From an uncultured Acidimicrobiales bacterium (GTDB lineage Bacteria; Actinomycetota; Acidimicrobiia; Acidimicrobiales; SZUA-35): DNA of 64,000 nt. Positions 2,968-32,331 of this stretch are shown one piece after another (position 1 is the stretch's first letter; the number at the start of each line of letters is the position of its first letter). Where the stretch lies: NCBI GenBank assembly GCA_938002965.1, contig CALKZY010000017.1, positions 19,443 to 83,442 on the forward strand, in the 5' to 3' direction. The notes below the pieces were generated by a model. It made no database searches. It was given only the letters and a program-made list of their open reading frames with translations, and was not told the origin of the DNA. A program made the translations under genes and the position numbers.

Positions 2968-3984
2968 TCAGGCTCTGGCGTGCGAGCCGAGCTCGTCGAG
3001 GGCGTTGACCACCAACCGGCGCACTTCGCCGGCATCAAGGCGAGCGCAATGGCGAACCGGGTGAAAGACCCCGGCATCATCCCATGGGATGCCGGTATCA
3101 AGCGCCGAACGACGGAACCGGGTGTCGACCACTGTCATGCCCCTCGTCAGAGCTCCTCGGAGCTCGACCCCGACCGGACGCTCGACCATATCGAACAATT
3201 CCGGATGCGTTGCCGCCAACACTGCGCAGGGATCGTGTAGTCCCCCAATTCGCCGACCGCCGATGGCCTCGACTCGATCCAAATAGCTCGTAAAAAGATC
3301 CGCCACCACACCAGCCCCAGGGTTCACGGGTCGGCCCGCCTCGGTACCGGTTAATGCTCGAATGTCAGCGACCAAAGCGTCATCAACCACAAGCTGGCTG
3401 GTCAGGTCAAGGCCGCACATTCTGATCTCGGCCCCACACTCGAGTACAACGGCCAGCGCTTCAGGGTCGGCAAGGGCATTGAACTCGGCTGCCGCCGTTC
3501 GATTTCCGCCTAAGGCCGAACCCCCCATAAAGCTGATGCCGGCCAAGCGGTCGGCCAAGTCAGGAGCGCGTCGCAAAGCGGTAGCGATATTGGTTGCAGG
3601 GCCGATTGGGATCAGCCACAGTCCCTCTTCAGACCTCACTGTCTCAATCAAATACTCGACCGCATGAGTCGCCTCGGGCTCTTTCGTCAACTCCGGAAGG
3701 GACGGTCCGTCAAACCCGCTAGCACCGTGGATCTCCGGTGCGTGCAACGGCTCCGCTTCGAGGGGTCGTGCCTGCCCGACGTAAACCGGGACATCAAGGC
3801 CAAACAATTGGCAGGTCAACAGGGCGTTTCGGGTAACGTCGGCCAGCGGCGCATTGCCTCCAACGGTGGTGATTCCAATTAGCTCGCCATAATGACCGGC
3901 AACCACCAATGCCACAGCATCGTCCTGGCCCGGGTCGCAGTCGACGATGAGACGGGGCCTGTTTTGGTCCCCCAAGCCTGTCAT
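2968..3984 (-). CDS. inosine/uridine-preferring nucleoside hydrolase
   Basis: 338 aa. LIVDCDPGQDDAVAL matches the DxDxxxDD nucleoside hydrolase signature. The gene is immediately followed by ribokinase, a salvage gene pair. Confidence 0.85.
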   Translation of the reverse strand: MTGLGDQNRPRLIVDCDPGQDDAVALVVAGHYGELIGITTVGGNAPLADVTRNALLTCQLFGLDVPVYVGQARPLEAEPLHAPEIHGASGFDGPSLPELTKEPEATHAVEYLIETVRSEEGLWLIPIGPATNIATALRRAPDLADRLAGISFMGGSALGGNRTAAAEFNALADPEALAVVLECGAEIRMCGLDLTSQLVVDDALVADIRALTGTEAGRPVNPGAGVVADLFTSYLDRVEAIGGRRIGGLHDPCAVLAATHPELFDMVERPVGVELRGALTRGMTVVDTRFRRSALDTGIPWDDAGVFHPVRHCARLDAGEVRRLVVNALDELGSHARA

Positions 3985-4027
3985 CCGACGGCCAGGGCTT
4001 GATCACAGGACGTGACTAGGCGAGCTT

Positions 4028-4318
4028 TCATCGTTTGCCGAGGAACTCGTAGATTTCCTTGCACTCGGGACACACCGGAAACTTCTTGGGGTCACGATTC
4101 GGTACCCACTTCTTGCCGCAGAGAGCGCGCACCGGAGTCCCTTCCACCGCAGCCGACAGGATCTTGTCCTTCTTGACATAGTGAGCGAACTTTTCATGAT
4201 CACCGTCGTCCAAGATCGGATCGCCAAGCTTTGGATCAACGATCTCCTCCACAATCGTTGACGGCCCAGGCGACGAGCTAACCGGTGACTGTTGGATTCC
4301 AGAAGTCAGAGAAGGCAC
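4028..4318 (-). CDS. DUF3039 domain protein
   Basis: 96 aa. KFAHYV...ALCGKKWVPNRDPKKFPVCPECKEIY matches the actinobacterial DUF3039 family from memory. GTG start with AGGA about 9 nt upstream. Confidence 0.75.
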   Translation of the reverse strand: MPSLTSGIQQSPVSSSPGPSTIVEEIVDPKLGDPILDDGDHEKFAHYVKKDKILSAAVEGTPVRALCGKKWVPNRDPKKFPVCPECKEIYEFLGKR

Positions 4319-7458: not shown

Positions 7459-8832
7459 CTATTGGGCGTTTAGAACGCCAAGTTTCTGCTTGAGACGCAG
7501 GACCCGCTCGACCGATGCATCGAGCCGCTCTACCGGAAGCTCACCTGAAGCCACTGCAGCCACCAGCGCGTCGGCTGACGAGACGAGGTCAGCGGGCTGA
7601 AGCAGCACGTCAGCCCCGGCGTTGACGGCCCCGACGGCCAACTCGCCTGCCTCAAAGGCATTCACGCCACCCATATTGAGGGCATCGGTCATAACAACAC
7701 CGTCGAATCCGAGTTCACCTCGAAGAAGATCTTGGATTAGTACCGGGGAAACGGTCGCCGGGTCGCCGGTGCTGTCGAGATTCGGCATGACGAGATGGCC
7801 GACCATAATAATCTCAACGCCTTGGGCAATGGCGGCATCAAACGGGACCCGATCTCTCTGCTCCCAGTCTTCTCTCGAGACGTTGATGGAAGGAAGCCCT
7901 TCGTGGCTGTCATCCACCGTGCCACCGTGGCCCGGCCAGTGCTTCGCTGCCGCGGCCACGCCAGCCCGTTGCAGACCGGTTATTGATGCTCCGACCATGT
8001 TGGCAACGAGCTGAGGATCATCGCCGAACGACCGTTGATCCAAGAAACCCGCACCGCCGGGCAACAAGACATCGGCTACCGGCGCGAGGACTACGTTGAT
8101 CCCCTGTTGCTGTACCTGCTGGCCGGTGACGTACGCCGCTTCAGTGACGGCCTCGATGTCTCCGGATAGCACGCCGGGGGCGGGGTAGGCCGAGACCTGG
8201 TCGGTCACCCGACTAACCTTGCCTCCCTCTTGGTCCACCGCGATCAGCAGCCCGAGGTTCCCATCAGATGCCTCAGCGTCCCGCAGCTCTTTCGATAGCA
8301 GTCGGAGTTGTTCGGCCGTCTGGACGTTGTCTTCTTGATAGAGCACTCCACCAAGGTGATACTCACGAATGATGTCGACCGCGTTCTCGACACCGGCAAA
8401 CCTGGCGTTCTGGCGAGCGGTGCCCGGGGAGTCCGCTACTCCGGCTGTTCCGAACAGCACTGGCATCAGTAGCTGTCCAACTTTTTGCTCAACCGTCATT
8501 TGCGACATGATCGACTGGATCTGCTGCTCCACTGCCGCTGCTTGGTCGGAGGCATTCGCCGAGACTGCAATCAGTTCCGGTTCAGTGGTGGTGGTAGCCG
8601 CAGTAGCTTCGACGGCCTGCTCCGCGCCATCGCTTGCGCCATCAGACCCGGCCACATCCGACAGGAGGTCAGATGCTCCCGAACATGATGCCACCAGTGA
8701 TGCAAAGGCCACGAGAAGCATCGTCATGACACAATTGCGGCGAGCAGCGGGCAAATCAACGCGGCAGTTCACAACGCCGGTCTGTGGGCCGTCCTCACTG
8801 ACGGTGGGAGATTTGCTGCTGAAGTCTGTCAT
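7459..8832 (-). CDS. glycoside hydrolase family 3 (NagZ-like beta-N-acetylhexosaminidase), lipoprotein
   Basis: GH3 N-terminal domain features are KVGQLLMPVLFG, AVDQEGGKVSR and KHWPGHGGT. Lipobox is LVASC. The start is uncertain (ATG 8832 or 8727; the ORF extends to 8988). Confidence 0.8.
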   Translation of the reverse strand: MTDFSSKSPTVSEDGPQTGVVNCRVDLPAARRNCVMTMLLVAFASLVASCSGASDLLSDVAGSDGASDGAEQAVEATAATTTTEPELIAVSANASDQAAAVEQQIQSIMSQMTVEQKVGQLLMPVLFGTAGVADSPGTARQNARFAGVENAVDIIREYHLGGVLYQEDNVQTAEQLRLLSKELRDAEASDGNLGLLIAVDQEGGKVSRVTDQVSAYPAPGVLSGDIEAVTEAAYVTGQQVQQQGINVVLAPVADVLLPGGAGFLDQRSFGDDPQLVANMVGASITGLQRAGVAAAAKHWPGHGGTVDDSHEGLPSINVSREDWEQRDRVPFDAAIAQGVEIIMVGHLVMPNLDSTGDPATVSPVLIQDLLRGELGFDGVVMTDALNMGGVNAFEAGELAVGAVNAGADVLLQPADLVSSADALVAAVASGELPVERLDASVERVLRLKQKLGVLNAQ

Positions 8833-9134
8833 CACGGATTTCGCTGGTCGATACACGATCGGGTCCCACATGAATCTGTCTCGGTTACATGTGGGCACGG
8901 GCACTCCGGGCGAGCGAACGTAGTTGATCACTCCCGCCGACGGCAACCACACACCGGGTGGTAACGAGACCAACGCACTCAAGGTCACGTCATCGTGTTA
9001 GCCGACACCTATGAGCGTAGGATTTCTCGTCGCCAACGGGGCTCATAGTTCCGAAAAAGTAGGGAGGTTGTGAAAAATGTGACCGATTCTTTCCGAATTC
9101 TGAGATGGCTCGGGCCGCAGGATAAAGTTCCCCC

Positions 9135-9839
9135 ATGACCAAGACGGACTGGAACCCGCTGCTGCGCTCCGAGTTCGATCAGTCCTACTGGCGAGAACTC
9201 ACGAAGTTTGTTCAGGACGAACGACGTCAACATCAGGTCTACCCACCACACGACGAGGTGTTCGCAGCCCTTCATCTGACGTCATTCGAGTCGGTCAGGG
9301 CGGTCATCTTGGGGCAGGACCCGTACCACGGTCCCGGGCAGGCTCATGGACTCTGTTTTTCGGTGCGACCAGGTGTTCCCGCTCCCCCGTCATTGAAGAA
9401 CATCTTCTCGGAGCTAGAAACCGATCTTGGCCTATCTCGCCCAGCAGATGGCTCCCTACTCCGGTGGGCAGAACAGGGAGTTCTGCTTCTCAACACCACG
9501 TTGACGGTCAGGGCTCGACAGGCAGCGTCGCATCAAGGCAAGGGGTGGGAGAAGTTCACCGACCGAATTATCGAAGTTGTTTCGGGCAAATCGGACCGCG
9601 TGGTGTTCGTTCTCTGGGGCTCGGCAGCACGGCGAAAGAAGCAGATGATTGATCTTTCCCGCCACGCTGTAGTGGAGTCGCCCCACCCGTCGCCGCTATC
9701 AGCTCACCGAGGTTTTCTCGGCTCGCGACCGTTCTCCCAGGTGAACAGCCTTCTCGAAGAGGCCGGTCGGACTCCCATTGATTGGAATCTCCATCCCGCT
9801 CCCCACGATTCCTCGGCTCAGCCTGCGCCTATCGACTGA
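9135..9839 (+). CDS. ung: uracil-DNA glycosylase (family 1)
   Basis: Motif A (GQDPYHGPGQAHGLCFSV) and motif B (HPSPLSA) are both present. 234 aa. Confidence 0.92.
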   Translation: MTKTDWNPLLRSEFDQSYWRELTKFVQDERRQHQVYPPHDEVFAALHLTSFESVRAVILGQDPYHGPGQAHGLCFSVRPGVPAPPSLKNIFSELETDLGLSRPADGSLLRWAEQGVLLLNTTLTVRARQAASHQGKGWEKFTDRIIEVVSGKSDRVVFVLWGSAARRKKQMIDLSRHAVVESPHPSPLSAHRGFLGSRPFSQVNSLLEEAGRTPIDWNLHPAPHDSSAQPAPID

Positions 9840-9877
9840 GACCTGTCGGCTACGACGTGTTGGCTGAGACCCGGCGA

Positions 9878-10666
9878 CTAATACATCGAGGCACCGGACT
9901 CGTCTCCATCCTCGCCTCGAACCTGGGCTAGGGCTGACCTGGCGCCGGCCAGTTGGGCCAGCAGGTTGGATGTGGCCGTAACCATCCGGAATCCTTGTTC
10001 GACTCGTTTCGCCGTCATAGCTGGGGTGCTATGGATGCCGGGCACAATTGACCTGGCGTTTGACAGTTCGACGATCTTCGACAGGGCCTCCTGATAGACG
10101 GCCGAGTCCGGGTGATCGGTGGCGGGAGGCAGACCATAGCTAATCGACAGATCTGCCGGGCCAACGTACACCGCGTCGATTCCTTCGACGTCGAGTATCT
10201 GATCCAACTGCTCGACGGCCTGCCTGGTTTCGATCATGGGGATGCAGGCAATCTGGCTATTGGCATCAGCGTGGTAGCCGCCGCCAAGAGCTGAGGCCGC
10301 CCGGGCTGGGCCCCAGCTTCGGGATCCCTGCGGAGCGTAACGACACGCCCGAACAGCGGCCTCGGCCTCTTCCGGTGAATTGACCATCGGGATGATGACT
10401 CCCATCGTCCCGGCGTCCAGAAGCTTGCCGATGATCCCCGGCTCGTTCCATGGAGCGCGGGCCAACGGAACCGATGTGGTTCGCATGGCCTGAAGCATCG
10501 ACGGCACGGCTGAATAGTCCAACAGCCCATGCTGAAGATCAAGGCAAAGGTAGTCATAGCCGACCGTTGCCAGCTGCTCAGCGGCGGCAACGTCTGGGGT
10601 GGACATCCAAAGTCCTATGGTCGTTCCTCCCTCAGCCCACGTCTTCTTGACCTCGTTTGCGATCAC
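9878..10666 (-). CDS. HpcH/HpaI family aldolase
   Basis: 262 aa. CLDLQHG, VIIPMVNSPEEA, PMIETRQAV and VGPADLS are characteristic of 2,4-dihydroxyhept-2-ene-1,7-dioate aldolase-like enzymes. Confidence 0.85.
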   Translation of the reverse strand: MIANEVKKTWAEGGTTIGLWMSTPDVAAAEQLATVGYDYLCLDLQHGLLDYSAVPSMLQAMRTTSVPLARAPWNEPGIIGKLLDAGTMGVIIPMVNSPEEAEAAVRACRYAPQGSRSWGPARAASALGGGYHADANSQIACIPMIETRQAVEQLDQILDVEGIDAVYVGPADLSISYGLPPATDHPDSAVYQEALSKIVELSNARSIVPGIHSTPAMTAKRVEQGFRMVTATSNLLAQLAGARSALAQVRGEDGDESGASMY

Positions 10667-13620: not shown

Positions 13621-14400
13621 TCATGAAGTCGACCAACGACGCAGACGTACCAGAAGTTCATCGAAGATCTCGGGTAGACCGCGGGCCCTACTCCCATAGG
13701 TATGGATCGGCGCCCTGGCGTTGTGAGCCTCATTGATCAGAACTCGATTGGGGATGACCGGGCTCCATACCGCCCGTCGACCTACCATCCCGTAGAGTTC
13801 CTCGATCCGGTTGTTGGCATCTTTGGATGTCGGGGGGACGCGGTTGAGAATCACTCCGGCGATGTCGAGTTCGCTGTTGTGCTGATCCCAAATCGAGTCG
13901 ATGAGGTCGAGTACAGGGTTGATGCCGCGCAGACCAAACACGGTTGGCTCAACAATGATGAGAGCACCGTCAGCGGCCGTCAAACCACAAGATGTGTTCA
14001 GACCGAGAGACGGCGCACAATCGATGAGGACCAGTTCGAAGTCATCGGAGACGCCTTCCAGCGCCCGTCGCAGCCGCTGGGCCGTAGTGGGTCCCTGACG
14101 GTCGTTCTCTCGTTCGGTCAGGTCATGGCCGCCTGGCAGAAGCCAGACGTCTTCGCCCCACCCGGACGGCACGATCATGTCGGCTGCAGAACCGGTCTTC
14201 GACGATCGCATGGCGTCACCCGTACCGAAGTTATCCAGTGATGGTTCCACTCCGAGTGACCAGGTCGCGTTCGCCTGGGCGTCAAGGTCGACAACCAGCG
14301 TCCGGATTCCAGCGTTCAACGCTGCCGACGCCAAGCCCAAGACCACAGTGGTCTTGCCGACGCCACCCTTTTGGTTGAGTATCGCGACCGAACGCTTCAT
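13621..14400 (-). CDS. ParA/Soj-like ATPase (orphan)
   Basis: Deviant Walker A ILNQKGGVGKTT is present, with Walker B-like LVLIDCAP. ATG 14400 is preceded by GAAGAGGA. No parB or parS was recognised nearby. Confidence 0.85.
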   Translation of the reverse strand: MKRSVAILNQKGGVGKTTVVLGLASAALNAGIRTLVVDLDAQANATWSLGVEPSLDNFGTGDAMRSSKTGSAADMIVPSGWGEDVWLLPGGHDLTERENDRQGPTTAQRLRRALEGVSDDFELVLIDCAPSLGLNTSCGLTAADGALIIVEPTVFGLRGINPVLDLIDSIWDQHNSELDIAGVILNRVPPTSKDANNRIEELYGMVGRRAVWSPVIPNRVLINEAHNARAPIHTYGSRARGLPEIFDELLVRLRRWSTS

Positions 14401-14561
14401 GCCATCCTCTTCCCTGGAAGCCAACCTAAGCCATTGTTGATCGGCTCTACTCTAGAGCGAGATCACAAAAGAAGGGGGGACGCGACCGACTGGACAGGCG
14501 GGAATCGGACCGATCAGGCCTCGCGGATGGAGGGAACTAGGTGTGGGCGGTTGAATGAGGA

Positions 14562-14999
14562 TTAGAGAGCCACGCCGCCGGTTTGAGACCGATCCTGGCG
14601 GTGGAGATCAATTACGTCGGCGTTTTTTCGATCCTCGAGGATGCCTCGCAGCCTTGCGATCTCACGCTCATGCTCATCTCGCTTCCGGCGGGCAGCGGTG
14701 AGGGCGCCATCAGCTCGGGCTATCAAGCTGCGCAGGTTGGCAAGCTCAGCGACCATATTGGCGTCGTGAACGCCGGTGGTCTGGCTTTCCGCCGCAACGG
14801 GCTGGCGCATGGGGTCTTCCAGCTCAGCGCGCAAGGCGAAGAGGTCGTTAACGGCTTGAGTTCGCTGACGCTCTATTTTCCGGCGGCTCTCAACAAGCTT
14901 CCGGGTGATCGCTTGGTGACGTCGGTCAAGAACCCACATCCCGACGCCTCCGATGAGGAGGCCGATCATGAGGCCGATCACCAAATTCAAGTTCCACAT
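14562..14999 (-). CDS. hypothetical membrane-anchored coiled-coil protein
   Basis: 145 aa. An N-terminal TM (LVIGLMIGLLIGGVGMWVL) is followed by a charged helical region. No family recognised. Confidence 0.55.
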   Translation of the reverse strand: MWNLNLVIGLMIGLLIGGVGMWVLDRRHQAITRKLVESRRKIERQRTQAVNDLFALRAELEDPMRQPVAAESQTTGVHDANMVAELANLRSLIARADGALTAARRKRDEHEREIARLRGILEDRKNADVIDLHRQDRSQTGGVAL

Positions 15000-17901: not shown

Positions 17902-20058
17902 CTAGCTTGGCGACTCGTTCAGGAACGTCTTACGAGTCGGCCGGTCGTACGGAGAGCGTAGGGGGAAGCGTTTCACCAATCCCTTGGCTTGGCTCACCCA
18001 CTCGTCTCGCTCGATGCGGCCTGGGAAGGCGTCAATCGCATCAGTTACCTTGGCTACGTCAGCTTTCTTAAAGGCTGACAACTGCTCCCAGGTCTGGATA
18101 CCGAAGCCGTTGAGCGTCTTCTCCATCACCGGACCGATGCCGTTCACGACCTTCAGATCATCTTTGTGAACTGCCCCGGCCGTGCCGAGCTTGGTCGTTC
18201 CACGCTGCCAGTCCGAACCTGAAGGCGGCTTCTTCGACACCTTCTTAACCGCTTTCTTGGCGGCCTTCTTCTTGGCAGGCTTCTTCTTTGCCTTCGGTGC
18301 TGAGGTGTTCTCCCCCGGAACGTGCCCGGCGTCGAGGAGCTTCTGCGCTCCACCCTTCCAATCATCACGTTCAATCCGACCAGGGAAGGCATCGATTGCC
18401 TCGGTGACCTTGTCGACGTCACCCTTGGTGAAGGCTGCCACCTGCTCCCAGGTTTGGATGCCGAAGCTATTCAGCGTCTTCTCCATCACCGGACCGATAC
18501 CGTTGATCCGCTTCAAGTCGTCGCGATGGTTGGCTCCCGGCGTTCCAAGCTTGGTAGTGCCCTGGCGCCATGAGTTGCTCTTGGAGGCTGAACTCTTCGA
18601 TGCTTTCTTGGCCTTTTTCTTCGCCTTGCCAGCAGCCTTTTTGGCATCCTTGGCGTCTCGCTCAGCGTCAGCAAGTTGCTTGCGGAGCTGCTCGATTGTC
18701 CGGTCCCGTGTCGGCACCAGTGCGGCCTTGCGTTCCGCATCAGCCAGTTGCCGGCGCAGATCCTTGGACTGATCGCTCTCGCTCTTCGCTGTAACACGAG
18801 CGGTCTCAAGATCTTTGCTTGTGGTCGTAAGCCTTGACTCGAGGCCAGACACCTTGCTGGCGTCAGCCTTGAACTTGGCCAGCTCCGACTGCAAACCAGC
18901 AACCTTGCCAGCATCAGCCTTCGCCCTAGCCAACTCCGACTGCAAACCAGCAACCTTGCCAGCATCAGCCTTCGCCTTAGCCAACTCAGCCTCAAGACCA
19001 GCAACCTTGCCAGCCTCAGCCCGTGACTTAGCCAACTCAGCCTCAAGACCAGCTGACTTATCAGCCTCTGCCTTGAAACCCTGAATCTGCGACTGCAGAC
19101 CACCAACCTTGCCAGCCTCAGCCTTCGACACGTCCAAGTCCTTAGACAAAGTCGCAACCCGAGCCTCAAGACCAGCAACCTTGCCAGCATCAGCCTTCGC
19201 CTTAGCCAACTCAGCCTCAAGACCAGCAACCTTGCCAGCATCAGCCTTCGCCTTAGCCAACTCAGCCTCAAGACCAGCTGACTTATCAGCCTCTGCCTTG
19301 AAACCCTGAATCTGCGACTGCAGACCACCGACCTTGCCAGCCTCAGCCTTGAACTTCGCCAACTCGGCTTCCAGTCCACCAACCTTGCCAGCATCAGCCT
19401 TCGCCTTAGCCAACTCGGCTTCCAGTCCACCAACCTTGCCAGCATCAGCCTTCGCCTTAGCCAACTCAGCCTCAAGACCAGCAACCTTGCCAGCCTCAGC
19501 CTTGAACTTCGTAAGATCGGCTTGTAGACCGGACACCTTGCCAGCATCAGCCTTTGACACGTCCAAGTCTTTCGACAAAGACGCAACTCGAGCCTCAAGA
19601 CCACCGACCTTGCCAGCCTCAGCCTTGAACTTCGTAAGATCGGCTTGTAGACCGGACACCTTGCCGGCCTCAGCCTTCAGGCTGCTGATTTCGGTCTCAA
19701 GCTCAGAGGTCCGATCAGCCTTGCCGCGAAGGGCGACGACCTGTTGTTCAAGGCCGGGAACCAAGTCGGCTTTCGACTTGAAGCCCTTCAGCTCTGACTC
19801 GAGGCTTGGAACCTTGTCGGCTCGCTGCCGGACTCCATCTAGTTCAAGCTGAATCTCGTCAGCCCTTGTCTCTGCTGTCTTCAGCTCCGTAACCCGACGA
19901 CGTAGTCGATCGGTCTCGGCTTCGCTCTCGAGGCGGATTCGTTCCCGCTCGGCGACTTCGCCACGACGACGCCACCACCACCAAAGCAGTCCGAGTAGCA
20001 ATCCCAGGAGGAAGCACAGCAGCAGTGCCAATGCAATCGTTCCGAATAACCAACCCAT
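17902..20058 (-). CDS. membrane-anchored repeat protein: N-terminal TM, about 20 x 17-residue coiled-coil repeats, two C-terminal Lys-rich plus helix-hairpin-helix-like modules
   Basis: 718 aa. The TM (LFGTIALALLLCFLLGLLLGLLWWWW) is followed by RRRGE. Residues about 78-420 are tandem KA[DE]AGKV[AG]GL[EQ]AELAKA units. Two copies of ...DDLK.[IV]NGIGPVMEKTLN.FGIQTWEQ...FPGRIERD[DE]W follow, each preceded by a KKAKK-type tract. Confidence 0.8.
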   Translation of the reverse strand: MGWLFGTIALALLLCFLLGLLLGLLWWWWRRRGEVAERERIRLESEAETDRLRRRVTELKTAETRADEIQLELDGVRQRADKVPSLESELKGFKSKADLVPGLEQQVVALRGKADRTSELETEISSLKAEAGKVSGLQADLTKFKAEAGKVGGLEARVASLSKDLDVSKADAGKVSGLQADLTKFKAEAGKVAGLEAELAKAKADAGKVGGLEAELAKAKADAGKVGGLEAELAKFKAEAGKVGGLQSQIQGFKAEADKSAGLEAELAKAKADAGKVAGLEAELAKAKADAGKVAGLEARVATLSKDLDVSKAEAGKVGGLQSQIQGFKAEADKSAGLEAELAKSRAEAGKVAGLEAELAKAKADAGKVAGLQSELARAKADAGKVAGLQSELAKFKADASKVSGLESRLTTTSKDLETARVTAKSESDQSKDLRRQLADAERKAALVPTRDRTIEQLRKQLADAERDAKDAKKAAGKAKKKAKKASKSSASKSNSWRQGTTKLGTPGANHRDDLKRINGIGPVMEKTLNSFGIQTWEQVAAFTKGDVDKVTEAIDAFPGRIERDDWKGGAQKLLDAGHVPGENTSAPKAKKKPAKKKAAKKAVKKVSKKPPSGSDWQRGTTKLGTAGAVHKDDLKVVNGIGPVMEKTLNGFGIQTWEQLSAFKKADVAKVTDAIDAFPGRIERDEWVSQAKGLVKRFPLRSPYDRPTRKTFLNESPS
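18799..19827 (-). repeat. in-frame tandem coding repeat array (51-nt unit, 225-nt higher-order unit)
   Basis: Units of 17 codons recur about 20 times. A block of more than 70 nt starting at 19031 is repeated identically starting at 19256, an offset of 225 bp (75 codons). Confidence 0.9.
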
Positions 20059-20138
20059 CTTCTAATTAGCTCCCTTTGTGATGTCGCCGACGTCGGCTCG
20101 TGATTTCGATTTCGTTCTTGTCGTTCGATCTGTCAATG

Positions 20139-21164
20139 TCATGATTGAAGTTCCCAAGCAATGCGACGATTTCGCTGCTTGTCTTCAGGTGTGGCCTCAG
20201 GGTCGATAAGCAGTTCGCTTTCACCCCGGCCTTCCGATGCCAGTCGATCAGCATCGACTTCGCCCGTTTCAACCAGGTAGGCCACTACTGCCACAGCCCG
20301 AGCCTCGCTCAGGGCCTGGTTGGCACCTTCGTCTCCGTCGCTGTCGGTGTGTCCGACGACGAGCAGGTTACCCACCTCAGGGTTGGCGTTGATCATCTCG
20401 GCCGCAGCATCGAGTGTTGCGGTCGATTCGGATCGGATCGTTGCTCTGTTGACATCGAACTCGATCGGTTCCAGCTCGAACAGGTCGTTAAGCGACTGTT
20501 CGATCGGCGCCACGGTGACTCGATCCACCAAATCAAGACCGCCAGCGGTGGCTACCACCGACGCCTGACTGATCCACTCGGTCTTTTGAGCCTCGGACTC
20601 TGCCTCACCGGTGATGACAAGCTCGCCACCTTCACCGACGCTGTCGCCATCAATCGTGAGATTGTCGGTGACGTTGGTCGCTCCGTACTCTGCTTCGGCG
20701 CTACTGACGATTGATTCGCGCGTCGCCTCATCAGGCACCGTGCCATCGAGGACGATGGCTCCTCCGGCAGCTGCTGCGGCCAGACCCATTGGCGCCAGCT
20801 CAATCTCCGGCTCCGGTTCTGGGTCCGGTTCGGGTTCGGGCGCCGGTTCAGCATCGCCCTCTGTGATCCGGTATTCGACGTTGTCGATTTGATCCCGGGA
20901 TCGCACTGCCTGGACCGCTGCATCCTGATTGGCTGCGGGGCCTTCTAGAACTACGTTTAGTCCATCGCCACCAAGGCCATCGAGCCCACGGCCCTGAAGG
21001 CCGACGTAGCTGACGGCCGAGTCAAGCCCTGCTCCTTCTAGTGCTGCCACTGCAGCATCCGCCGCACGGCCTCTCGCAGCGCTGGCCATAATTAGGCCCA
21101 TGATCGCCGCGCAGAGAAGCATGCCGAGCAGTGGCCAAAGCCACCAACTTCGAAAGTTTCGCAT
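20139..21164 (-). CDS. OmpA/MotB-like peptidoglycan-binding protein with BON-like domains and N-terminal TM
   Basis: 341 aa. N-terminal TM is WWLWPLLGMLLCAAIMGLIM, followed by a PEPEPDPEPEPE linker. BON-like segments are present (IVLDGTVPDEATRESIVSSAE...VTDNLTI). The C-terminal OmpA-like domain is LLVVGHTDSDGDEGANQALSEARAVAVVAYL...NRRI. Confidence 0.8.
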   Translation of the reverse strand: MRNFRSWWLWPLLGMLLCAAIMGLIMASAARGRAADAAVAALEGAGLDSAVSYVGLQGRGLDGLGGDGLNVVLEGPAANQDAAVQAVRSRDQIDNVEYRITEGDAEPAPEPEPDPEPEPEIELAPMGLAAAAAGGAIVLDGTVPDEATRESIVSSAEAEYGATNVTDNLTIDGDSVGEGGELVITGEAESEAQKTEWISQASVVATAGGLDLVDRVTVAPIEQSLNDLFELEPIEFDVNRATIRSESTATLDAAAEMINANPEVGNLLVVGHTDSDGDEGANQALSEARAVAVVAYLVETGEVDADRLASEGRGESELLIDPEATPEDKQRNRRIAWELQS

Positions 21165-21414: not shown

Positions 21415-22701
21415 CTAGAGGTTGAACACCCGGATGTAGTCCACTTCAAACGTCGCGTGCTTCGACAGCACGCCGGATCCAAGGCCACCGGGTGATCCCC
21501 CGACAGCCAAGTTGATCTTGATCTCGGGAATGGTCTCGTTGAACGGTGCGGGGTAGCCCTGTCTCGTGGCTGCAGAGTCGACGGAGAATGTCTCCCGACC
21601 ATCCATATACCAGGTGAGCTTGCCGCCGTAGCCGTAGTCGAATCGAATGGTATGCCACTCGTCGCTGAAGGGGCCGTCGAGGTAGGCGGGGCGGTTCTGC
21701 AAGGAATGACTGCCCTGTTGATTTGCGTAGTGCATCGAGAACATCGCTCGATTGGGATTCTCTGCTGTCATGACTTCGAGGTAGTCGAGCTCGCCGCCGG
21801 TCGGCCAACCGCCGCCCGCCCAGCTCGATGACCACACGGCTGGCCAGAGCCCTGCCTGGTTTGAAGAATCGGCCACGGTCAGTTTCACCCGAAACTCAAT
21901 GGCTTGGCCGGGGGAGAAAGAGAGCCCACGGCTTCGTACCATGCCGGAGCTCACCGTCCGCTGAGAACCCCCTGGGCATGTGACGGTTTCGTCGGCGGCC
22001 CGAAGGATCAGCTTGCCGGCTTCAACTGCGACGTTGTTCGGCTGGTAGCACTGTCGTTCCCCGTTGCCATCTCCGTAGGTGGAATGCTCTCGAAGCCAGC
22101 GACTGGTGTTGAGCGAATCAAAGCCCTCAAACCACTCACCAGCGCCGCTCGGTGTAGTGGTCGTCGTGGTTGCTGGTCGCAATGTTGTAGACGGAGCGGC
22201 GGTACTCGTCGACCTCGATGTAGTCGTTGTCGTAGCCATGATCGTAGTTGTGGACGGCCACGTGGTTCCGACGGTCGAGGCAGTCGTGGAAGACGACTTC
22301 GATGTGGAGGCGGTGGTCGAAGACCGCTTGGAAGACGTCGTGGGAGACGTCGATGGTGAAACGGGGTCCGTTGTCACCGTTGATGAGACCGGCTCAGACG
22401 TCGTCGTCGACGTCTGACTACTGGTAGAGCTGCCACGGCCGTTGTTCTCTACCACCAGAACGCCGCGCTTGGTTACCCGGTCACGCTGCAGGCCCAACGC
22501 CTTTCCCTTGCCCTTGGGGTTTCGTACGACCTCTGCCGCCGGATCCGTCGCCGCAGACCGCCCGGTCTTGCTGTCGGCCACCCCAATGGAAGTTGCCGTC
22601 ATGGCCCCGATGGCGATGACAAAGCCGAGGACGATAAGCGCCGGCACCGATCGGTACTTCGCAGGTCGCCTTCGACCTCGACCAACTACTCTTCTTGCCA
22701 T
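21415..22701 (-). CDS. glycoside hydrolase family 16 (beta-glucanase/laminarinase-like) with TM anchor and long Thr/Ser linker
   Basis: Catalytic motif is GGELDYLE (ExDxxE). The N-terminal anchor is RSVPALIVLGFVIAIGAM, followed by about 100 aa of S/T-rich linker. Start is set to ATG 22701, preceded by AAGGAG. Confidence 0.8.
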   Translation of the reverse strand: MARRVVGRGRRRPAKYRSVPALIVLGFVIAIGAMTATSIGVADSKTGRSAATDPAAEVVRNPKGKGKALGLQRDRVTKRGVLVVENNGRGSSTSSQTSTTTSEPVSSTVTTDPVSPSTSPTTSSKRSSTTASTSKSSSTTASTVGTTWPSTTTIMATTTTTSRSTSTAAPSTTLRPATTTTTTPSGAGEWFEGFDSLNTSRWLREHSTYGDGNGERQCYQPNNVAVEAGKLILRAADETVTCPGGSQRTVSSGMVRSRGLSFSPGQAIEFRVKLTVADSSNQAGLWPAVWSSSWAGGGWPTGGELDYLEVMTAENPNRAMFSMHYANQQGSHSLQNRPAYLDGPFSDEWHTIRFDYGYGGKLTWYMDGRETFSVDSAATRQGYPAPFNETIPEIKINLAVGGSPGGLGSGVLSKHATFEVDYIRVFNL

Positions 22702-23077
22702 TCTCGGCTCCTTGCCACCGCATGTTCGGTGCTGCCCCGTAAGGCAGACCTCGGTCGGCGCAACCACGCACACCCACCGTCCTCAACAACCGCCTCCGAG
22801 CACCTCAACGCGGGACCCAGAGTGAGCATGACTGCAACCGCCCAGCTCAGTTGAGCTGCCTAGCCAGTCGCTTCATGTCCTCTCTTTTGGAGGGTACGGA
22901 AGGCACCGAGACCCGGCAAGACAAGGATGAGTAAAGATAGCCACAAGGCAGATGCAAAAGGGACCTGAGCGTAGGCCATGCGTCCCACTGCAGCGCCGAG
23001 GGTGGTTCGAACGGACCACAACGACGACGCTCGACATCACCGACTTATGCGGCTGATGACTACCTTTTGGGGAGCAG

Positions 23078-32155: not shown

Positions 32156-32246
32156 CCAGCCATTCCGGGGCCATTGCCGACAGATACATCGTTGCGAGGC
32201 GACGGGGTTTGATCATCAGAAGTCCGACAGGTGGAGGTTATCTCGG

Positions 32247-32331
32247 TGCCCGGGGCGGGACTCGAACCCGCACGGAGGTTTCCCTCCCGAGGGGTTTAAG
32301 CCCTCTGCGTCTGCCATTCCGCCACCCGGGC
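32247..32331 (-). tRNA. tRNA-Leu (anticodon UAA)
   Basis: The reverse complement folds as a cloverleaf. Acceptor is GCCCGGG/CCCGGGC and D arm is GCG-GAATGGCAGA-CGC. Anticodon stem GAGGG/CCCTC carries loop CTTAAAC (anticodon TAA). There is a long variable arm, T arm GCGGG-TTCGAGT-CCCGC and discriminator A. CCA is not encoded. Confidence 0.9.

Follow-up and report, generated by a model that had tools for sequence, protein, structure and literature searches.

Within a 64,000-nucleotide (nt) stretch of the genome of an uncultured Acidimicrobiales bacterium (GenBank assembly GCA_938002965.1, contig CALKZY010000017.1, positions 19,443 to 83,442 of the forward strand; this whole stretch is hereafter the window, and positions are counted from its first letter), two adjacent genes, which we call B and A, form what the comparison of related loci indicates is a conserved two-gene unit. 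B is predicted to encode a peptidoglycan-binding protein with a single membrane anchor, and A a membrane-anchored repeat protein that ends in two helix-hairpin-helix (HhH) modules. The domains themselves are familiar and the module is already catalogued (COG3743); what is new is the pairing of B with A, of which no description was found in the literature searched.

The reading that we favour, if only tentatively, is a membrane scaffold in two halves, B and A, that is anchored to the wall and exposes HhH modules to the cytoplasm. B would insert with its N terminus inside (N-in), its BON-like and OmpA-like domains gripping peptidoglycan at the outer side of the cytoplasmic membrane, and A would insert with its N terminus outside and its C terminus inside (N-out/C-in), extending into the cytoplasm a helical repeat stalk whose length differs between species and which would present one to three COG3743-type HhH modules at its far end. 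The genes would be co-transcribed, and translationally coupled in some lineages, and their products would associate through their transmembrane (TM) and Trp/Arg-rich juxtamembrane segments, which would hold the modules fixed relative to the wall.

Conservation of the gene pair

20139..21164, minus strand: gene B, 341 amino acids (aa), predicted TM-anchored BON-like/OmpA-like peptidoglycan-binding protein, isoelectric point (pI) 4.05
20059..20138, minus strand: B–A intergenic spacer, 80 nt, with a Shine-Dalgarno sequence for A
17902..20058, minus strand: gene A, 718 aa, membrane-anchored repeat protein with two C-terminal HhH modules, pI 9.64

The two co-directional open reading frames (ORFs), 80 nt apart, that an earlier sequence-only reading of this DNA had singled out are both present on the minus strand. 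The spacer carries GGGAG as a Shine-Dalgarno sequence 11 nt 5' of A's ATG, and no terminator-like site was found within its 80 nt; the promoter and terminator scan was uninformative, its counts being those expected from shuffled sequence. We infer that B and A are co-transcribed. The closest genomic matches of the locus are metagenome-assembled genomes (MAGs) of Acidimicrobiales, and in the closest of them the neighbouring proteins are up to 98% identical.

Upstream sequence is available for 28 related loci, and in every one of them the A-like gene is preceded on the same strand by a BON/OmpA gene, at a distance of −1 to 126 nt; this count is inflated by the shared ancestry of a syntenic neighbourhood. 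Most of the 28 indeed share the whole neighbourhood of the window, in the order GMC oxidoreductase, Bax-inhibitor-like gene, GH16-like gene, B, A, convergent 3-hydroxyacyl-CoA dehydrogenase, hydrolase, thymidine kinase, small TM coiled-coil gene and ParA-like gene. The upstream gene is either a match to B or a longer BON/OmpA protein, of which the BON part alone matches in one locus (L036). The sequence-only reading would have been refuted had the two genes not stayed together in related genomes; they do stay together, in three genomic contexts that span two phyla (Acidimicrobiales and the gammaproteobacterial Granulosicoccaceae).

Beside the arrangement of the window, a second type of Acidimicrobiales locus (L017, L021, L026, L031, L038) is flanked by ArsC, P-II and Clp_N-like genes and has two added genes, one for a BON/OmpA protein (283-297 aa) upstream and one of lipoprotein-like type (450-470 aa) downstream of the A-like gene; in L026 they lie at 3330..4199 and 8771..10180, respectively, and the other four loci have both as well. 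The lipoprotein-like gene gives faint PD40/Tricorn_N matches, and this gene set loosely recalls Tol-Pal. In the Granulosicoccaceae, contigs from three separately binned MAGs (L027, L033, L035; 47-53% GC, vs about 61% in the second Acidimicrobiales type) carry a BON/OmpA gene of 635-689 aa, with 69-80 nt between it and the A-like gene downstream. In L021, L026 and L039 the stop codon of the first gene overlaps the start codon of the second. The reverse test covered four sampled B homologues, a genome scan starting from B having given 4 loci only, and two of these homologues (37-49% identity) are followed by an A-like gene. The B–A pairing defines a clade of A-like proteins, which is also marked by a WxxGTTKLGTPG extension.

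Predicted wall anchor, topology and repeat stalk

21081..21149, minus strand: B hydrophobic segment (signal-anchor), residues 6-28, the single such segment by hydropathy
20787..20861, minus strand: B acidic Pro/Glu linker (EPEPEPDPEPEPE), residues 102-126, from the translation
20649..20765, minus strand: B BON-like domain core, residues 134-172, from Pfam BON and BON_like (both sub-threshold) and ArfA_OmpATb_N
20166..20459, minus strand: B OmpA-like domain, residues 236-333, from Pfam, with an intact GHTD...N..LS..RA..V motif

B matches the OmpA-like family PF00691 over profile positions 2-98 of 98 (7.6e-18; 65.1 bits vs a gathering score of 27.2), and its peptidoglycan-contact motif GHTDSDGDEGANQALSEARAVAVV, of the pattern GHTD..G....N..LS..RA..V, aligns with that of Escherichia coli OmpA (3nb3). 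Its matches among PDB sequences are OmpA C-terminal domains and, at 1.3e-9, Rv0899 (2l26). The match to BON (PF04972; 3.4e-5, 24.5 bits) stays just below the gathering score of 27, and that to NCBIfam ArfA_OmpATb_N (1.7e-8, 34.8 bits) below the equivalog cut-off of 81; BON is above threshold in orthologues of B (50.2 bits in L026), and PF04972 is precomputed for many of its homologues. The earlier description of B as a TM-anchored BON/OmpA-like wall binder therefore holds as a prediction, the BON call being sub-threshold in the window protein alone, and B probably binds peptidoglycan. The Pro/Glu linker contains an 18-nt tandem repeat (20805..20849), and it also gives a low-complexity match to Trypan_PARP.

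Charges around the TM segment of B are ambiguous, with 2 K/R before it (R2 and R5) and 2 after. The segment opens with Trp-rich RSWWLWPLL, and a motif of the RRWWWxPL type is kept at this place in orthologues. We place B N-in because the B-like proteins of the other two contexts carry long Lys/Ala-rich N-terminal tails before the TM. To our knowledge, every characterised BON or OmpA-like domain lies outside the cytoplasm. Where the Lys/Ala-rich tail is present (L027/L033/L035 and L017/L031/L036/L038), the wall anchor itself is predicted to carry a basic cytoplasmic tract.

19975..20058, minus strand: A N-terminal TM helix, residues 1-28, from hydropathy, with GLLLG and a WWWW belt
18805..19815, minus strand: A repeat array, residues 82-418, 19 units of 17 residues, consensus KVAGLEAELAKFKADAG

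A has 0 K/R before its TM helix, RRR (residues 30-32) directly after it and 6 K/R in the next 17 residues; residues 8-40 give a weak match to Pfam LapA_dom. The same charge bias is found in 89 of the 100 TM-bearing proteins among the 147 best module representatives, and the opposite one in 4. The module also occurs fused to cytoplasmic proteins (NuoE, ribosomal L21 and S2, phasin), and in Urf1/protein-O, a TM hairpin, it lies at the C terminus after a flexible linker. Taken together, the charge bias, its frequency among relatives, the cytoplasmic fusions and Urf1/protein-O lead us to predict that A is oriented N-out/C-in with its bulk in the cytoplasm, in keeping with the positive-inside argument of the sequence-only reading; nothing in the charge distribution places the repeats outside.

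Could the bulk of A nevertheless be extracytoplasmic, TolA- or ComEA-like, and meet B in the wall zone? A does have a TolA-like composition (one TM, then a helix rich in Ala, Lys, Glu and Asp), ComEA is a case of HhH domains at work outside the membrane, and the OmpA gene and faint PD40-like lipoprotein added in L026-type loci are reminiscent of Tol-Pal. We nonetheless give this arrangement hardly any credence: besides the charge bias of A and of its relatives, the module is fused to obligately cytoplasmic proteins and no TolQ/TolR-like genes are present nearby. Genes of the MotA/ExbB or ExbD type were likewise not found near the pair, and the charge bias of A is opposite to that of TolA.

With B N-in and A C-in, a belt of Trp and Arg would mark the cytoplasmic interface of both proteins (in B RRWWWxPL, at the start of the TM; in A LLWWWWRRR, at its end), which fits a side-by-side packing of the two, without being proof of it.

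The near-perfect 17-residue repeats that had been noticed after the TM of A are confirmed as an array of 19 units, far beyond chance. Lag-17 identity is 0.47, and the underlying DNA has a 51-nt period (Tandem Repeats Finder scores 250-1036). Hydrophobic residues occupy positions 2, 5, 9, 12 and 16 of the 17-mer (17/5 = 3.4), and hydrophobic power at a period of 3.40 reaches 141, vs a maximum of 99 in 200 shuffles; the strongest hydrophobic peak is a 2.42-residue alternation, which stands above the 3.40 peak. Two of the 19 units are 24 residues long (17+7), i.e., with exactly one heptad added. Some coiled-coil logic thus seems to be present in the repeat, in its 3.4 periodicity and in the 17+7 units, which fit heptads. 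An uninterrupted rigid helix is not established, because Gly occupies positions 4 and 17 of each 17-mer and orthologues have Pro there.

The near-perfect 17-mer array is a feature of close relatives of the window. Orthologues of A are 329-1049 aa long and carry one to three modules, their dominant spacer periods being 14, 17, 21, 24 or 28 residues. The suggestion of a rigid spacer or cytoskeletal ruler is weakened by this variation in length and repeat period and by the Gly or Pro that punctuates the repeats: a fixed-length ruler is unlikely, and a better fit is a stalk that is flexible or segmented and differs in length between species.

The repeat array also has consequences for annotation. 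Residues 382-434 of A (18757..18915) match the SoxA/TsdA cytochrome c family (PF21342) with 53.6 bits, vs a gathering score of 27, a false positive that we rejected because there is no CxxCH and the only Cys of A is C15, in the TM; it could mislead automatic annotation. The part of the window from 18001 to 20000, in which the array lies, yields long ORFs that are spurious, both in other frames and on the other strand (e.g., 18513..19604, 19334..19852) and has the strongest local GC skew of the window (−0.206). In three loci an A-like gene is split over two frames inside the repeat array (L017, 7725..10368; L019, 5842..10355; L038, 5932..8662), most likely by assembly or frameshift errors in repetitive DNA rather than by biology.

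The C-terminal modules and their candidate ligands

18574..18648, minus strand: first Lys-rich tract, A residues 471-495, 10 K/R and 1 D/E, not conserved in orthologues
18316..18564, minus strand: HhH module copy 1, A residues 499-581, hidden Markov model (HMM) envelope, with NCBIfam and Pfam matches
18214..18309, minus strand: second Lys-rich tract, A residues 584-615, 13 K/R and 0 D/E
17953..18204, minus strand: HhH module copy 2, A residues 619-702, HMM envelope, with AlphaFold2 model and PDB sequence matches
17905..17952, minus strand: conserved C-terminal tail (...SPYDRPTRKTFLNES), A residues 703-718, from the alignment with Acidimicrobiales orthologues

The twin arrangement of Lys-rich tract and HhH module at the end of A, also described from the sequence alone, is confirmed; the HMM gives two module copies of about 84 residues, and no further copies were found elsewhere in the window. 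Net charge is −1 for copy 1 (over residues 496-583) and +3 for copy 2 (over residues 616-703). The tail that follows, SPYDRPTRKTFLNES, may be a short linear motif.

By NCBIfam, the modules are of the COG3743/PRK12373 C-terminal type, with matches to NuoE PRK12373 (1.9e-36), L21 (6.1e-31), S2 (2.2e-20) and PhaH (4e-16), the NuoE, L21 and S2 profiles each having two matched stretches on A. Naming A a NuoE, L21, S2 or phasin PhaH after these matches was rejected, since C-terminal profile positions alone are matched (e.g., 274-385 of 400); scores against the whole-protein NCBIfam cut-offs are 127 vs 514 (NuoE), 108 vs 193 (L21), 73 vs 526 (S2) and 60 vs 250 (PhaH). The PhaH match and the convergent 3-hydroxyacyl-CoA dehydrogenase gene had also raised the idea of a phasin or polyhydroxyalkanoate-granule protein, which was set aside: PhaH is matched in the module part alone, and the dehydrogenase neighbour is missing in the other two contexts. 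Two Pfam families are matched above their gathering scores (DUF4332, 24.8 vs 23.2; IMS_HHH, 25.2 vs 24.4) and HHH_5 below it (24.2 vs 27). The Joint Genome Institute (JGI) calls relatives "predicted flap endonuclease-1-like 5' DNA nuclease", which is COG3743.

The only PDB sequences with the module are Rhodovulum Urf1 (9wqv_a; 1.5e-15, by profile 1.5e-23) and Dinoroseobacter protein-O (8yy9_O; 3.4e-11, by profile 2e-22). The module is resolved in neither cryo-electron microscopy (cryo-EM) model (9wqv, 8yy9), the mature Urf1 of Rhodovulum is a truncated N-terminal fragment, and the two cryo-EM papers, of 2025-2026, describe what the domain or protein does as "obscure" or "unknown" (PMC12079452, PMC13066640). 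No functional study of the COG3743 module, of DUF4332, of H3TH or of the C-terminal extension of NuoE was found in the literature searched.

A search for module homologues with a 103-aa query returned 17 close matches, and an exhaustive profile search was used instead, which gave 25,505 clusters at 50% identity with E ≤ 1e-3, of which 15,336 with E ≤ 1e-10. A single protein can hold as many as 26 copies of the module, and the architecture of TM anchor, spacer and modules is found in 100 of the 147 top representative module proteins; the hairpin extension WxxGTTKLGTPG in front of each module marks the clade of A. The collection also includes giant proteins with 20-26 tandem HhH modules (P0051, 3033 aa, with an N-terminal TM; P0052, 3115 aa; P0053, 2280 aa). 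In Erythrobacteraceae and other Sphingomonadales (L041-L117), a conserved protein of about 170-240 aa combines an N-terminal TM, a basic juxtamembrane stretch and one module with a DVLDEGA..RNQALID motif, and in Rhodobacteraceae (L051, L080) the gene after a NuoE-module fusion encodes a membrane protein with a module at its own C-terminal end, in the arrangement of Urf1/protein-O.

An AlphaFold2 model of two modules built from 8 sequences was unusable (predicted local distance difference test, pLDDT, 54) and was replaced by a single-module run on a 58-sequence alignment (pLDDT 91; predicted template modelling score, pTM, 0.81), in which a short N-terminal hairpin precedes a fold of five helices in all, with the HhH at LKVVNGIGPVMEKTL. 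Foldseek found no significant match to this model in the PDB (best E 0.55); the weak matches (query-normalised TM-score 0.5-0.6) are to the N-terminal (HhH)2 of RadA/Rad51, the C-terminal repeats of NusA, Y-family polymerase thumbs and SAM domains, the best of them being the DNA-binding N-terminal domains of RadA/Rad51, whereas the NusA repeats and SAM domains are protein-binding. Beyond Urf1, the module profile matches PDB sequences of the HhH of Dpo4/Dbh (5e-5), the haloarchaeal L32e extension (5e-4), Pol beta (0.02) and the acidic repeats of NusA (0.05). The HhH motif proposed from the letters alone is supported by its matches to the polymerases among these, and no match was seen to a well-characterised family that does not bind nucleic acids. 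LKVVNGIGPVMEKTL fits the HhH consensus h-x-x-h-x-G-h-G-x-x-x-A-x-x-h except that its Ala is replaced by a near-invariant Glu, and the near-invariant residues of the module (DDL, GIG, E, L, G, Q, W, A) are mostly acidic or structural.

The claim that A has a probable DNA-binding end is weakened: the HhH motif and the Lys-rich linkers are there, but the modules are acidic as a family and polylysine is missing in many orthologues. Net-positive modules make up 13-25% only and net-negative ones 63-73%, and basic linkers are rare, the 30 residues before the module reaching a net charge of at least +4 for 7% of representative modules. Among orthologues of A, the densest Lys window holds from 2 to 10 K per 15 residues, and in the minimal orthologues (329 and 350 aa), which have a single module, the linkers are acidic and a Lys tract is missing. 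Polylysine is lineage-specific, and the conserved core of the system does not require Lys-rich linkers. Because of these linkers, the leading candidate ligand in the orthologue of the window itself is nucleoid DNA or another polyanion. NusA is a known example of acidic (HhH)2 repeats that bind proteins. A DNA-tethering role is on balance weakly supported, and DNA and protein are both possible ligands.

Two alternatives turn on this question. In the first, the wall-anchored scaffold would be the same, and its HhH modules would bind proteins or one another, A being a hub that recruits or clusters cytoplasmic or membrane complexes where the wall holds it fixed. We see this as possible, if rather doubtful. 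The prevalence of acidic modules and the nature of the invariant residues suit it, as do the NusA repeats and SAM domains among the weak fold and profile matches, the occurrence of the module on large complexes without a DNA role (NuoE; Urf1/protein-O, a subunit of the reaction centre–light-harvesting 1 complex, RC-LH1; phasin), the high valency of up to 26 copies and the minimal orthologues without any basic tract; yet the GIG hairpin is the classical DNA-backbone-binding element, the best weak fold matches are DNA-binding domains and this orthologue does have histone-tail-like polylysine tracts. In the second alternative, which we hold to be unlikely, the pair would be a peptidoglycan-membrane-nucleoid tether or ruler whose HhH modules and polylysine bind chromosomal DNA non-specifically, as the HhH motif with its polymerase profile matches, the two Lys-rich tracts (10 and 13 K/R), the cytoplasmic topology, the wall-binding partner and the conservation of the pair would allow. 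The acidity of the modules and the many orthologues without polylysine speak against such a tether, the variable stalk (329-1049 aa, variable repeat period) against a ruler, and Gly at repeat positions 4 and 17 against a rigid rod.

Several observations weigh against the wall-anchored scaffold as we have drawn it. The contact between A and B is one that we infer. Mean module net charge is −3.3 over the 85 modules collected here and −1.8 over 665 modules of representatives, and mostly acidic modules fit a simple DNA clamp poorly. Neither stalk length nor repeat period nor polylysine tracts are conserved among orthologues of A. The order-wide synteny leaves about three contexts only as independent support for the pairing, two remote BON/OmpA paralogues have no A-like neighbour, and the distant A-like proteins P0020, P0022 and P0023 have no OmpA neighbour.

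The last of these points could also be taken to mean that the genes are independent neighbours, possibly co-transcribed, B being a generic envelope-stress or wall binder of the ArfA/OsmY type and A an unrelated membrane-anchored coiled coil, since both architectures also occur alone, contact is only presumed and strong synteny within the order inflates the co-occurrence count. We consider this decidedly improbable, as the adjacency survives the move to two other contexts and another phylum and the stop/start overlap recurs in three loci. In the opposite direction, the wall-anchored scaffold may be extended to a trans-envelope tether that would fix the nucleoid or a large complex to peptidoglycan via a split OmpA/BON anchor and a stalk, the COG3743 module being a general device for positioning large assemblies, a generalisation that we judge quite unlikely.

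Neighbouring genes and comparison with known systems

A ParA/MinD-like ATPase gene (13621..14424, minus strand; AAA_31 at 1e-34, CbiA, MipZ) starts directly after the stop codon of TrkA, and beside it lies a gene for a 145-aa protein (14562..14999, minus strand) with a TM of the N-out type, then a coiled coil, and no Pfam match. Both are syntenic with the B–A pair in most Acidimicrobiales loci, and ATPase and membrane-anchored coiled coil could be a separate positioning system. Directly upstream of B, a gene at 21415..22773 (minus strand), syntenic with the pair in loci of the window's type, encodes a protein that has a TM anchor and a long linker rich in Ser and Thr and that matches SKN1/KRE6 (a glucanase like those of glycoside hydrolase family 16, GH16; 2e-6) weakly, below threshold. 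The only RNA gene detected in the window is a tRNA-Leu (anticodon TAA; 32245..32331, minus strand).

If A and B do interact, they would represent a simple coupling from the wall to the cell interior, found in monoderm (Acidimicrobiales) and diderm (Granulosicoccaceae) envelopes alike, and the wall-anchored scaffold would give an abundant bacterial domain (COG3743, about 25,500 clusters) a genomic context. Were the trans-envelope tether to prove right, it would provide the first function for the COG3743 HhH module, which is found on complex I, ribosomal proteins, RC-LH1 subunits and phasins. If the genes are independent, what remains is an OmpA-family protein beside one more member of a large uncharacterised coiled-coil family.

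The sequence-only reading knew of no characterised system with such an architecture, which is true as far as characterised systems go; the module itself, however, is catalogued and very common, and its combination with a TM and spacer is widespread among its carriers (100/147). B resembles ArfA/OmpATb (Rv0899) of Mycobacterium tuberculosis, likewise from an actinobacterium, in having an N-terminal TM, BON and an OmpA-like domain, and differs from it in its score (34.8, vs the equivalog cut-off of 81) and in the gene downstream, which is A. The operon partners of ArfA are the small membrane proteins ArfB/ArfC.

A is like Urf1/protein-O in being TM-anchored and in carrying a COG3743 module behind a flexible linker. 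Known carriers of COG3743 are NuoE, L21 and S2 (as an alphaproteobacterial C-terminal extension), Urf1/protein-O/protein-3h of RC-LH1 and the phasin PhaH; they bear one module on an enzyme, a ribosomal protein or a U-shaped TM hairpin, whereas A bears two behind a 470-residue stalk, and compared with them the clade of A alone adds the WxxGTTKLGTPG hairpin. With RuvA domain II, ComEA, Pol beta, the Dpo4 thumb and the RadA N-terminal domain, the module of A shares an h-x-x-h-x-G-h-G hairpin in a five-helix bundle, and it departs from canonical DNA-binding HhH domains in that it has no significant structural match, its family is net acidic and the Ala of the second helix is a near-invariant Glu.

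EzrA, which is N-out/C-in like A, and TolA, which has the opposite topology and needs TolQ/TolR, also have one TM at the N terminus and a long helical part after it. Neither has HhH modules or a BON/OmpA partner, and A shows no sequence relationship to either.

In the polar hub proteins HubP/FimV, of Vibrio and Pseudomonas, one polypeptide joins an external domain for peptidoglycan binding, through a single TM, to a long cytoplasmic hub rich in repeats; it has LysM rather than OmpA/BON, acidic repeats, the C-terminal motif of FimV and no HhH. No LysM or FimV match was found in A or B with Pfam and NCBIfam. HubP/FimV is nonetheless the nearest functional analogue of the B–A pair, which resembles it in the logic of a wall-fixed scaffold; if the reading of B and A as such a scaffold is true, a comparable logic would here be split over two proteins in presumed contact.

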